Shown here piece after piece: positions 21,001 to 32,000 of a stretch of 32,000 nt of DNA; position 1 is the stretch's first letter; every line of letters begins with the position of its first letter. This DNA comes from Photorhabdus kayaii (GTDB lineage: Bacteria > Pseudomonadota > Gammaproteobacteria > Enterobacterales > Enterobacteriaceae), in contig NZ_JAJAFZ010000037.1 of the NCBI RefSeq assembly GCF_025384895.1, positions 17,206 through 49,205 of the forward strand, in the 5' to 3' direction. The position numbers are program-made.

Positions 21001-24000
21001 AGCGAATCCCCGGGAGCATAGATAACTATGTGACCGGGGTGAGCGAGCGCAGCCAACAAAGAGGCAACTTGAAAGATGACGGGTATAGATGTTGGGTAAT
21101 CCTACCCCATATCATCTATCCTGTTTTCAGCTAAACAGGTTTAATGCGACAGCCAGATGTATTGCCCACATTAATAGCGCCATATTGGTGGCACGAAAGT
21201 GGCGCGATTATCTGAATTGCGCCATAATCGCGCCAGTATTCTTACTGGGAGCTGTTGTTCGCTATGAGTTTAATGACCGATATTTATGAAACCTTGTGTG
21301 TTGCATCACAACCTATGTCCGTTTCGGATTTATTGGCGGAGTATCCCTCCGTTCCTAGAAGGACCGTTCAACGTTGGTTGGGGCGACTTGTTGAAGATAA
21401 GAAAGTACAGATATTGGGTGAAGGTCGAAGTCGCCGCTATGTTATCGTTACGGAGGAAACATCATATTCGGTAGCGGATAGATCGGATAATTTCCCGAGC
21501 TATATTCCACTGTCTGAGGATAGTAAGGATATTCTTCGTTATATTGATCAACCTATCAAAGCGAGGACGCCTGTCGGTTATCAGCGAGAGTTTCTGGAAT
21601 CATATGAGCCGAATGTCACTTATTATCTGTCGGTTCCAATTCGTAATCAGCTTTGGCGAATTGGAGATACGAAACAAATCTCACAGCCAGCAGGAACCTA
21701 TGGTAGATCTATCTTGGATCGTTTGCTCATTGATTTATCGTGGGCTTCAAGTTATTTGGAAGGAAATACTTACAGTCGATTGGATACGGTGAAGTTGATT
21801 GAATATGGAAAAGTTGCGGTAGGAAAAAACGCTATTGAAACTCAAATGATCCTAAACCATAAAGCCGCTATTGAATTACTTGTCGATGGTATTGAGGAAC
21901 TTGATTTTAATCGATATACCGTTCTCAATTTACACAGTACATTATCTGAAAATTTATTATCTAATCCTGTCTATGAAGGACGTATCCGTCAACATCAAGT
22001 TGAAATAGGAAAGAGTGTTTTCAGACCGTTATCGGGTGAGGCCCATATCAGTGAAATTTTGGATTCGTTGCTCGGGAAAGCAGGAGCTATATCAGATCCG
22101 TTTGAGCAATCCTTTTTTATGATGGTCCATTTGCCGTATTTACAGCCTTTTGCTGATGTTAATAAGCGAACTTCCCGCTTGGCCGCTAATTTGCCGTTGA
22201 TTCGTTCAAATCTATGCCCGTTAACTTTTGTCGATGTACCGGAAGAGGCATATAGCCGTGCAATGCTTGGTATTTATGAAATGACCCGAGTTGAATTACT
22301 ACGGGATCTTTATTTGTGGGCTTATGAACGTTCTGCCCGAGAATATTTGGCTGTCACGCAGGGAATCACCACACCAGATCCGTTAAGATTACAATATCGA
22401 AATATGATTAAGCAGATCGTTTATCGGGTAGTTGCTGCGCCAGAGATGGATTCAATTGACGTTATAGATAAATTAATTTCCGATGAATTAAGTCAATCTG
22501 AGCGTGACACGTTAAAGGCATTGGTTATTGAAGAGCTACGGCGATTGCATGAAGGTGTGTTGGCAAGGTATGGCCTCCGACCTTCGCAATTTGAAAAATG
22601 GAAAGGAAAACACCGATAGTCTTTGTATTCATGCTATTGAATAGCTACATAACCATAAAAAATTTCCGGGTTAATTACGAGGTTATCTTAGATAAGCTAT
22701 TAATTAGCTCTTTTGTTATGCCGTCGCATCAGAGCTTAAATTTATACAGATAAGGATTAAAAGCGATTTGTGGAATAATTGTAATTGACATCGCTAAACA
22801 CCCATCAGTACTTTCATCTCACCTTGGCCTGACATCATATACGCAGGGTTATCAGTGTAAATGAACCTTTGGTAAAACGGGTACAGACCTTAAAATATAA
22901 TTATCTTTATTTATCAGATAGATGAATATAGGTTGGCTACCCAGTCAAACAGCTCCTTGCACTACGATGTCACTTTAATTCTGGTTTATGCTCAGAAGTA
23001 GGCCAAAAATTCATCTGTTTAGGTAGTGAGTTTTTATACAGAATTATCCTAAAAAAACAGAAACTAGTATTTTTCTGATCTAAATTTTCGCATTATGTTC
23101 TAAAAATAGGTAAAAGAGATGTTTTAAGTAAGGATTTTAGATGGAAATGCCGATTTATTTTCAATACTGGGGTAAGGCGAAGCGAGTCTTAGAGATTGAT
23201 AGTGCAGATTATCATCTACTTCCTTACCATTGTTTAGATGTTGCTGCGGTAGGAATGCAGTTACTCTCTTTAGAAAGATCGCTAACTAGAGATCTTGCTA
23301 ACTTTTTAGCGTTATCTACGCAGCAGTTACGAAGCATGGTCTCTTTTATATTGGCTTTGCACGATATTGGTAAATTTTCATCTGCTTTTCAAAAATTACT
23401 TCCCGGTTTGGCAGTAGGTCTGCATCGACCAGATTGCCCTAAAGAGTATGATGGCCGTTATTTTTGTCATGATCGTATAGGATTGTATTTCTGGGAAAAT
23501 ATCAAAACGGGGTTACTTAATAGACTTGTTAATATTGAAGGCGCTGAACAAAGAGAACAGCGAGAGATGTTTGATACCTTAATGGTATTCATTGATTGTG
23601 TATTAGGGCATCACGGCCGGCCAATTGAGAAAACAGGCTATAAAGCGATTAAACATTTTACTGAACCTCACAATTTTAATGCTGCCATACTCTTTGCACA
23701 TCATTTGGTTGAATTATTTCAACCTGAGTTTCCCATTGAAAAATTACAATCCAAAGAGTGGCGACGGCAATTAGAACAAGTGAGTTGGCAGTTTGCTGGT
23801 ATTGCAATATTGGCGGATTGGATTGGTTCTGATAGCCATTATTTTACGTATCAATCTAAACCTATGCCGTTAACAGATTATTGGAAACATGCTCAAGCAA
23901 CGGCAAAAAAAGCGGTTATGGCGATAAATTTAGGTAGAACGCCGGTAATCAAACCGTTTATTTCCATTCAGAAATATTACGGTTTTGCTGCAACACCATT

Positions 24001-30000: not shown

Positions 30001-32000
30001 GAAGAGATTGGAATAATGGGATTACCTGTATTCTATGTTTTATCTAAAACCTCACCTCAAACTCAGTCACCATTGTTTGAGGTGGAAACGAAAGCATTTT
30101 ATCCTCAATTGAAGGAAGGGCAGCGTTTAGCTTTCAAATTACGCGTTAACCCAACAATCTGTATTACTGATCCTTCTGGAAAACGTCAGCGTCATGATGT
30201 TTTGATGCATGCTAAGTTTAAGGCAAAACAGCAAGGTGAAACGGAACAGGGGAAAATAAGAGTGATGATGGAGAATGCTGCCCGTAATTGGCTGTTAAAT
30301 CATCGTCGTATGCAGCAGTGGGGTATTCAGTTTGACGATTTACTGGATATTGAAGGTTATACTCAGCATCGAAGTGTAAAAAAGCAGGGGCAAAAAATAC
30401 AATTTTCCAGTGTTGATTTTCAAGGGCTTCTGACGATTACCAACGGTGAGCTATATTTGGAACAGTATGCAAAAGGCTTTGGTCGCGCTAAAGCGATGGG
30501 ATGTGGATTGATGTTAATTAGAACAGTATAATGGCATTGATGTCATTTAAATTTATTTTTGTTGAAGATCGTAATGCAGTATTCTTTGTTGTATGAAGAT
30601 ATTGATGTTAAAGGTAGCAAATTCGCTGTTGTTAGGCGTTCGTGTTATGTTTCAAAAGCACGGTAAAAAGTGATATTGCTAACTAATATCATCCTGTAGA
30701 GTAAGGCGTGGTCGTTACTCTCGGAAATATTGATAAAATAATTACCGTGTTCCTCACCTCTGTGGGGATAAACCCGAATTTTGGTATACATTTGCACAGG
30801 GAAAAATATGTTTCCTGTGTTTAATGGGATAAACCGCTATAATTAGTGGTAGGATATCGTGTTAGTGAGTGTTCCTGGTCATTACCGGGGTAAACCAAAC
30901 TCGATAAATCTCGTCAAAGAGAGAATTTAAGTGTTCCCTGTATTTACGGGGATAAACCGCGGCATGAGTGATGCTTTACTATGTTCACTAAATGTTCCCT
31001 GTAATTACGGGGATGGACCTAGCAGTGCTCCAAATAGTTATATAGCTAAGGATGAGTTCCCTGTATTGTACTCACGGGGATAAACCGTACGAGAATGACA
31101 CTGATCATTGGCTTCCTTGGTGTTCCCTACCTCTCTGGGGATAAACCGGACAGTAACAGTGACATAGTCGGTAGTCATTGGTGTTCCTTGTGTCCACGGG
31201 GGTGAACCGAACTGATACTGTTGTGCTTTGGATTTGGAAGCGTGTTCCCTGTACTAACGGGGATAAACCGAACAGTTAGCGTTTGAGCTGGCAGAGATGG
31301 ACTTGTTCCCCGTTTCTACGGGGGTAAACCGCTAAATACAGAACTATCTCCATCTGTTGCAATTTGATCCCTGTAATCTACGGGGATCAACCGTCATCCG
31401 GAAAGGTCATTGACATAAAGGGTCAGAGTTCCTTGACTTGATGGGGATAAACCAGATTCAGGTTTCATGATGATAGTTGAAGTAGAAATGTTCCCCGTTT
31501 TTACGGGGAAAGAGCAATTCGCTGCCACCTTGACCACAATTTTCAGGCCGATGATAAATCTGCGGTTCGGGCATATCGATACCGGGCAGTATTCGCTCGG
31601 TGATTTGACAGCGCTTTTTTCGGTATTAAGGTCAACGGCTTATCGAATTTTTTTACGTAAGAGAATGGCTCAGGATAACTAACGGAAATTTGTAATGAAG
31701 AAAAAGCGACTAAGAAAATTTCAGAAAGAACTTGAGACGTTGGGGTTAATTGAAAATGATCCAGATGTGGTCGGTTATGTGCTGTTTAACACGCGTAATC
31801 GCCGATTTGTGATACTGGATAAATATGAATTGGGGAGGGTGACTTACGCCGATGATATTGAAGAAGCTTATTTAGCAATGTCACGATTTGCCGCATTAAT
31901 GGATATTGATTCTTTGCCGGAGCCAGACAAATTCGATATTGTTGTTATCCCTGTTATTGATAACCCTTTATTTGGGTTAACGCCTAAAAAAACAGATTAA

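Follow-up and report, generated by a model that had tools for sequence, protein, structure and literature searches.

What is a CRISPR-Cas system (CRISPR: short palindromic repeats that are clustered and regularly interspaced) good for once it can no longer acquire spacers? The question is raised by a type I-E locus of Photorhabdus kayaii, contained in a stretch of 32,000 nucleotides (nt) that was analysed at its full length (contig NZ_JAJAFZ010000037.1, positions 17,206 to 49,205; hereafter the window, whose own numbering is used throughout). An earlier note on this DNA had described six cas genes beside an array, with no adaptation module, and had left two explanations side by side, namely that the locus is on its way to loss or that it has been retained for a fixed-target function. 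Profile matches, motifs, tblastn searches and a comparison with outgroups confirmed that this is an I-E cas operon without adaptation genes. As for the two explanations, the first is contradicted by the intactness of the cas genes, the purifying selection on them, compensatory changes in the repeat hairpin and constraint on the spacer seeds, while the second is supported; judged from comparison across the genus, the locus appears to be a maintained fixed-guide system and not a decaying one. The reading that we favour, at a probability of roughly 60%, is that of a fixed-guide I-E system that lost cas1-cas2 before the species diverged, and whose guides mostly act by binding through about 11 nt next to the protospacer-adjacent motif (PAM).

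We first consider whether the spacer content has changed. The degenerate array (30747-31516; this and all other features of the locus are on the forward strand) comprises 13 repeats and 12 spacers. It was compared with loci collected by a scan with Cas6e, taking one genome per species, which yielded 14 other Photorhabdus species with Cas6e proteins 85-96% identical, as well as with six conspecific strains. The whole array is orthologous in the 15 species, every spacer having its counterparts across the genus, and the array of the ancestor numbered about 16 repeats and 15 spacers, of which the clade of the window has lost three units (after repeat 4, after repeat 8, and the terminal one). The species differ otherwise by point changes, by small indels in the loops of repeats and, in two of them, by a small repeat element inserted at the array, and the arrays of the conspecific strains are one or two substitutions away from that of the window. 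No leader-side spacer private to one species or strain was observed in the 15 species and six conspecific strains. The "frozen memory" suggested in the earlier note is therefore a stronger case than was claimed, since the spacers are orthologous in 15 species and nowhere has one been gained on the leader side; the array appears to have been inherited vertically, with no spacer gain in any lineage.

The absence of spacer gain goes together with an absence of the genes that are needed for it. The next relatives of the Cas6e proteins outside Photorhabdus, from Oleiphilaceae, Salinivibrio, Shewanella and Vibrio, reach only 56% identity, and in these outgroups cas1-cas2 lie directly 3' of cas6e in 35/35 of the loci with enough downstream sequence. 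In the window their place is occupied by a leader (30532-30746), so that only 215 nt separate cas6e from the array, and tblastn with the Cas1 and Cas2 of an outgroup locus gave no match in the window, nor up to 10 kb to either side in the six conspecific strains, where a MazE-like antitoxin gene, transposases and unrelated genes lie downstream. Cas1 and Cas2 were likewise undetected within 10 kb at the 20 other Photorhabdus loci (14 species and 6 conspecific strains), and the array in Photorhabdus loci starts about 120-350 nt, mostly ~200 nt, past cas6e. Because all Photorhabdus loci are without cas1-cas2 while all 35 outgroup loci have them, the loss appears to be older than the divergence of the sampled Photorhabdus species, and within this I-E branch it appears to be peculiar to Photorhabdus.

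If the spacers are no longer replaced, are they still of any use? To each position of the spacers we assigned the number of parsimony steps on the cas-gene tree, summed over the 15 orthologous spacers, and divided it by the expectation from four-fold degenerate sites (418 sites, from cas8e to cas6e). For spacer positions 1 to 12 the ratios were 0.26, 0.18, 0.58, 0.18, 0.14, 1.06, 0.23, 0.14, 0.36, 0.23, 0.59 and 0.99, followed by ~0.6 at positions 13-14, ~0.8-1.1 at 15-25 and 0.5-0.8 at 26-32. Taken together, positions 1-5 and 7-11 show 64 steps where 221 were expected (0.29; p about 1e-35 against neutrality), positions 6 and 12 show 45 against 43.8 (1.03), and positions 13-32 show 354 against 438 (0.81). 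In Escherichia coli Cascade the seed consists of positions 1-5 and 7-8, and every sixth base of the guide is flipped out and left unpaired. The positions corresponding to these flipped-out bases differ from the seed positions in the Photorhabdus spacers both by a binomial test (p = 8e-10) and by a per-spacer Wilcoxon test (p = 7e-4), and 6/12 is the most variable of the 66 possible pairs among positions 1-12. When three clades were analysed separately, the seed ratios were 0.20, 0.32 and 0.29, and those of the flipped positions 0.79, 1.17 and 0.80. Two non-coding controls, the 520 nt upstream of cas3 and the leader, gave 0.76 and 0.68, so that drift in the PAM-distal part of the spacers is no slower than in ordinary intergenic DNA. 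The sixth-position rule of Cascade pairing is stated in PMC10120712, and the pattern seen here appears to be the one that selection for Cascade-mediated target pairing predicts. Selection would in this way have recorded which bases of the CRISPR RNA (crRNA) matter, and the biochemical I-E seed is recovered from sequence comparison alone.

The guides do not contribute equally. Strong seed constraint is observed for spacers 3, 4, 5, 8, 9, 10 and 12 (0.22-0.44 of the neutral rate over the first 16 nt), moderate constraint for spacers 1, 2 and 6 (0.53-0.56), and weak constraint for spacers 7 and 11 (0.70 and 0.88). The most conserved is spacer 9 (31271-31302; first 16 nt 0.22, whole spacer 0.39), with the sequence AACAGTTAGCG, in which none of the 15 species shows a change at positions 1-5 or 7-11 and one step at position 6 is the sole change in that stretch. 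Spacer 4 (30960-30991) is constrained at positions 1-19 (first 16 nt 0.26), and spacer 3 (30898-30930; first 16 nt 0.29, whole spacer 0.45) has changed little throughout, mostly at positions 6, 18, 24 and 30 (2-3 steps each), with one step at position 12. Others are constrained in the seed only, such as spacer 8 (31210-31241; 0.33 in the first 16 nt, 0.96 in the last 16) and spacer 10 (31332-31363), where positions 1-5 and 7-11 have 0 steps and positions 6 and 12 have 2 and 4; spacer 5 (31021-31053) has ratios of 0.29 and 1.05 in its first and last 16 nt, and spacer 12 (31455-31487; first 16 nt 0.44) has 0 steps at positions 1-5 and 3 steps at position 6. The conserved seeds of the seven strongly constrained spacers form a short list of candidates for testing.

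Some further regularities within the spacers were noticed. Positions 13-24 of spacer 3 form a palindrome whose arms co-vary among species (CTCGT/ACGAG, CTCAT/ATGAG, CTTAT/ATAAG), which points either to a hairpin within this spacer or to a target that is palindromic. Spacers 7 and 8 have seeds (31149-31161 and 31210-31222) that are near reverse complements of each other, ACAGTAACAGT versus ACAGTATCAGT, agreeing at 10/11 bases; a rough estimate puts the chance of this at about 0.02, and the flanks are incompatible with a single shared protospacer. Spacers 5, 7 and 9 share an ACAGT-like motif at their 5' ends.

The repeats have diverged from one another, and they too bear traces of selection. The earlier note had counted the 12 spacers correctly, yet overlooked that all 13 repeats differ: no two are identical, and one is 34 nt and another 30 nt long. 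They lie at 30747-30775, 30808-30836, 30869-30897 and 30931-30959 (R1-R4), 30992-31020, 31054-31087 (34 nt) and 31120-31148 (R5-R7), 31181-31209, 31242-31270 and 31303-31331 (R8-R10), and 31364-31393 (30 nt), 31426-31454 and 31488-31516 (R11-R13). The array nevertheless has the I-E format, with 29-nt hairpin repeats, a ATAAACCG-type 5' handle and 32-33-nt spacers, and its degenerate repeats belong to the same family as those of the outgroups, whose arrays are long and uniform (repeat GTGTTCCCCGTACCCACGGGGATGAACCG, with 28-135 or more identical repeat pairs). Covariation was examined in 100 distinct 29-nt repeats with 500 shuffles as the null. The two arms of the hairpin (positions 6-11 with 16-21) are paired in 91.2% of cells, and cells with a double change number 29 against 8.2 expected, values that 0/500 shuffles reach in either case. 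By the same normalisation as above, the repeat parts GTTCC (0.04-0.35), GGGG (0.04-0.13) and the handle ATAAACC (0.2-0.6) are constrained, whereas no constraint shows in the loop (0.8-1.5) or at repeat positions 1-2 (1.1-1.3). The Cas6e hairpin and the crRNA handles are thus maintained by way of compensatory change.

The same can be asked of the proteins that would use these crRNAs. The operon consists of cas3 (23141-25858; 905 amino acids (aa), an HD nuclease and superfamily 2 helicase matching the Cas3_HD, cas3_core and Cas3 C-terminal families), cas8e/cse1 (25873-27477; 534 aa, the large Cascade subunit and PAM reader; TIGR02547, 6.9e-173 over its full length), cse2/cas11 (27477-28058; 193 aa; TIGR02548), cas7 (28079-29113; 344 aa, the Cascade backbone; TIGR01869, 9e-101), cas5e (29124-29870; 248 aa; TIGR01868) and cas6e (29857-30531; 224 aa, the pre-crRNA endoribonuclease; TIGR01907). 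The start of cas7 is given as in the gene call of conspecific contigs, the open reading frame (ORF) itself opening at 28070. The six genes are uninterrupted, as had been claimed, and of full length, exceeding the curated cut-offs with near-whole profile coverage (NCBIfam, Pfam), and the five Cascade genes match I-E equivalog models above cut-off over their full length. On checking, the key motifs were all found in place: H73-D74, GAGKT at 310 and DEVH at 455 in Cas3, NLNRDD at residue 17 in Cas7, and His30 of Cas6e aligned to the catalytic His20 of E. coli CasE. The gap between cas3 and cas8e is indeed short, although it measures 14 nt and not the 15 nt given previously; cas8e and cse2 overlap by 1 nt, the gaps between cse2 and cas7 and between cas7 and cas5 are 20 and 10 nt, and cas5 and cas6e overlap by 14 nt.

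None of the six genes is disrupted in any locus that covers it, their lengths are identical or nearly so, and alignment to orthologs, which could have revealed lesions, gave 0 frameshifts or stops in the 83 orthologous cas genes recovered. In one species (L013) cas3 is beyond the contig end, hence this gene was compared in 13 other species and the remaining ones in 14. Pairwise ratios of nonsynonymous to synonymous substitution rates (dN/dS) against the window are 0.06-0.31 over the six genes, with dS up to 0.6-1.0: 0.12-0.21 for cas3, 0.13-0.19 for cas8e, 0.12-0.23 for cse2, 0.08-0.16 for cas7, 0.13-0.24 for cas5 and 0.06-0.31 for cas6e. Cas3 is 905-906 aa long in the 13 other species, its HD and Walker A motifs are invariant among species, and DEVY replaces DEVH (residue 458, at about 24512-24514) in L008, L010 and L015, which form one clade and whose cas3 has a dN/dS of about 0.14-0.15. 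By these ratios all six cas genes are under purifying selection, so that a CRISPR system without adaptation genes can apparently stay functional over genus-scale time (deepest dS about 0.6-1.0).

The constraint on guides, repeats and proteins indicates that guides are produced and that they serve to recognise targets. In the course of events that we envisage, the set of guides would have been fixed since the loss of cas1-cas2, with 15 in the ancestor and 12 in the window. The array would be transcribed from the leader or by read-through from cas6e, and cleavage by Cas6e would release crRNAs of ~61 nt that are loaded into Cascade. The activity under selection would then be recognition of fixed DNA sites via ~11 nt of pairing next to the PAM. 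Most guides would bind without cleavage, serving in regulation or in holding back a resident element, and Cas3 would be retained for the few guides conserved over a longer stretch (spacers 3, 9 and 4) or for incoming DNA that matches more fully; a mixture of the two modes may also operate.

Binding is favoured because the selected stretch of ~11 nt matches the pairing by which known degenerate regulatory guides keep Cascade at a promoter with no cleavage by Cas3. CreA of the CreTA module represses by partial complementarity (PMC8501985), the Salmonella I-E CreR has 15 nt and an AAG PAM in common between guide and target (10.1101/2023.03.10.532045), and mini-array guides pair over 10 nt or more and tolerate sixth-position mismatches (PMC10120712). 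Like these (10-15 nt of PAM-side pairing), the Photorhabdus guides appear to be constrained mainly at positions 1-5 and 7-11, and as in these, degenerate repeats keep the Cas6 handle and the hairpin. The differences are that CreA, CreR and mini-arrays are single-spacer units beside a normal adapting array, whereas the Photorhabdus array is the sole I-E array and has 12-15 guides, and that these units have their targets in a cas or toxin promoter within the cas locus, where in Photorhabdus only spacer 7 has a candidate, in cse2 (see below). The idea of the regulatory degenerate guide would hereby be extended from single mini-arrays to an entire array. One may go further and suppose, though only tentatively, that the whole I-E system has turned into a fixed multi-guide DNA-binding regulator, with 8-12 permanent crRNAs whose ~11-nt seeds address sites on the chromosome or on a resident element. 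Were this so, it would be a CRISPR-based regulon as old as the genus, perhaps connected with the life cycle in insects and nematodes.

Several observations weigh against a system that acts mostly by binding. No protospacer was found with present-day or consensus spacers among 50,697 phage records, 72,556 plasmids, IMG/VR and the JGI metagenomes: the window array against phages and the consensus array against plasmids gave only repeat-to-repeat matches, the conserved parts of spacers 4, 3 and 9 gave zero or chance-level matches in IMG/VR, with no PAM enrichment and no extended match, and spacers 3 and 4 gave zero matches in the JGI metagenomes. A search for PAM plus seed in the window and in each species' 20-kb locus returned a single recurrent orthologous site, that of spacer 7 in cse2. 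This spacer (31149-31180) belongs to the least constrained guides. It agrees with the start of cse2 (27480-27511) at 13/14 of its first nt and at 21/32 nt overall, the PAM being the ATG of cse2, a valid one for type I-E; PAM and strict seed are kept in 8 species (of 13 with spacer 7) and pairing is lost in 7, and the probability of such a match by chance is about 0.01-0.2. It could be a site of self-repression within the operon, or it could be due to chance. Furthermore, cas3 is as constrained as the Cascade genes, and pure binding would not need it; conservation of spacers 3, 9 and 4 reaches past the seed (0.39-0.45 over the whole spacer), and there is mild constraint in the segment of positions 13-17 (0.76) and at positions 25-32 (0.58-0.75), both of which would suit full R-loop formation by some guides; and all these ratios are relative to four-fold sites, which are a proxy for neutrality only.

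Some of the same observations fit the main rival explanation, a frozen "innate" immunity in which fixed crRNAs, Cascade and Cas3 destroy conserved mobile elements, for instance prophage or plasmid families that recur in the nematode or insect niche, the seed pattern then reflecting no more than the mismatch tolerance of type I-E systems. Purifying selection on cas3 and the invariance of its HD and Walker A motifs are what such a function requires, the constraint on spacers 3, 9 and 4 extends well past the seed, and the mild constraint at positions 13-17 and 25-32 fits completion of the R-loop. Nonetheless, positions 15-25 are approximately neutral, and by our estimate each lineage has accumulated several PAM-distal changes since the ancestor. 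In studies of E. coli such a number is at or beyond what direct interference tolerates. The empty searches of phages, plasmids, IMG/VR and metagenomes count against this explanation as well, and two Photorhabdus laumondii strains have type I-F arrays with strain-variable spacers, so that ordinary adaptive defence is already covered in those strains (PMC6267812). We regard immunity of this kind as possible but rather doubtful as the account of the array as a whole.

A far less probable alternative is that the conservation has nothing to do with target pairing, and that an artefact of the alignment, biased mutation or some overlapping element, coding or regulatory, has produced it. Positions 3 and 11 (0.58-0.59) and, less so, position 9 (0.36) are raised relative to their neighbours, so there may be a faint component of period three, and parsimony on a cas-gene tree is a simple method. 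A coding cause of the periodicity was rejected, since the 61-nt unit moves the reading frame by one at each unit and a coding signal would not sum over 15 spacers; mere nearness to the repeat was rejected because repeat positions 1-2 are neutral, as is the loop. There are also few gaps in the first 12 spacer columns, and the contrast is internal, of positions 6 and 12 with their neighbours, and repeated in three clades.

The two remaining explanations are weaker still. That I-E Cas1-Cas2 encoded elsewhere, or the adaptation proteins of a type I-F system, still add spacers in trans has precedents of a kind, in that strains of Xenorhabdus griffiniae have a second I-E set without cas1/cas2 beside a complete one (PMC11566119) and the type I-F system of P. 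laumondii has cas1 (PMC6267812), but it is very hard to reconcile with the lack of any private leader-side spacer, with repeats that all differ where fresh copies would have homogenised those on the leader side, and with a survey of strains TT01 and DJC that lists I-F-type arrays only (PMC6267812). The idea of a decaying remnant, in which the loss of cas1-cas2 began a slide into pseudogenes, can point to 13/13 differing repeats, two of them with indels, to units lost in some species, to small repeat elements and an IS605 element inserted in or beside the array in some genomes, and to DEVY for DEVH in the Cas3 of three species, but is already contradicted by 83 genes free of frameshifts and stops, whose dN/dS stays at 0.06-0.31 for dS reaching about 1, by the significant hairpin covariation and by a seed evolving at 0.29 of the neutral rate.

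Compared with canonical type I-E systems (E. coli K-12, Oleiphilaceae, Salinivibrio, Shewanella and Vibrio), the maintained fixed-guide system of Photorhabdus has the same six genes in the same order, the same 29-nt repeat family, 32-33-nt spacers, and a seed geometry with every sixth base unpaired. It differs in being without cas1-cas2, repeat homogeneity or spacer turnover anywhere in the genus, and, at 12-15 spacers, the array is short relative to the 28-135 or more repeat pairs of its I-E relatives. With Tn7-like CRISPR-associated transposons and type IV systems it shares the loss of cas1-cas2 and, presumably, the use of guides outside adaptive immunity. Those systems are without the Cas3 nuclease and are carried on transposons or plasmids, whereas in Photorhabdus cas3 is intact and conserved and the locus is chromosomal: its neighbours are an nlpD-like gene, mutS, FecR with a TonB receptor, and Fic, and no transposition genes adjoin it. 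A parallel in lifestyle is NilD of Xenorhabdus nematophila, likewise a nematode symbiont of the same bacterial family, which is reportedly an orphan crRNA for host colonisation and not for defence (Veesenmeyer et al. 2014, as cited in PMC11566119). NilD stands alone as an orphan unit, and its genome has a complete I-E system, while the Photorhabdus array is cas-adjacent and has many spacers, and in our scan no Xenorhabdus sequence came close to the Photorhabdus Cas proteins, the nearest Cas6e outside Photorhabdus (56%) being marine. The second I-E set of X. griffiniae also consists of an interference module by an array, without cas1/cas2, but it is found alongside a full set, and in its arrays the repeats are conserved and the spacers vary (PMC11566119), so that adaptation in trans is plausible there and not in Photorhabdus. 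In the combination of features, the whole and only I-E array, genus-wide distribution, a retained cas3 and no convincing target within the locus, the Photorhabdus system differs from all those with which we compared it.

A literature search revealed no description of this array, nor of a seed pattern in orthologous spacers. A CRISPRFinder survey of P. laumondii TT01 and DJC lists six arrays only, all with a type I-F repeat (PMC6267812); standard CRISPR finders would overlook arrays as degenerate as this one, and similar cases may be common. In the window the 12-spacer array is the sole repeat cluster, no orphan repeat-like elements were found elsewhere in it, and Rfam gave no match over the array region. 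The leader is alignable across species, and ~20 nt at its 3' end (ATATTGATAAAATAATTACC) are conserved in all of them. A simple scan of the leader did not find a consensus sigma-70 promoter, and a simple promoter and terminator scan of leader and array gave nothing above chance. At the other end of the operon, the ~80 nt 5' of cas3 (23060-23140) show, across the genus, rates of only 0.08-0.29 relative to synonymous sites and are probably a conserved promoter or a 5' untranslated region; none of the spacer seeds match there.

As for the surroundings, a gene for a Fic-domain protein (21255-22619) lies directly upstream of cas3. On the 3' side of the array (31467-32000) there are two small ORFs of 71 and 101 aa without a family match, followed in conspecific strains by the MazE-like antitoxin gene, and the DNA downstream of the array varies from species to species. 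In one conspecific locus (L058) an IS605-family OrfB/TnpB gene (11653-13031) is found right where the array alignment stops, inside the terminal repeat, and in the closest outgroup (L014) an extra ORF of 144 aa lies between cas6e and cas1 (10691-11125), with a weak KilA-N match below the Pfam cut-off. The nlpD-like gene (209-1219) and mutS (3816-6371) are ~17 kb from the CRISPR locus, and the ORF at 1271-2269 we take to be a candidate rpoS; the nlpD/mutS neighbourhood is variable among enteric bacteria. Finally, an element of ~120 nt is present in two copies, 94% identical (20263-20381 and 20961-21087), that flank a RibD_C-like ORF. It presumably resembles the enterobacterial intergenic repeat ERIC, and members of the same family are also inserted in the leader of L007 and twice within the array of L011.

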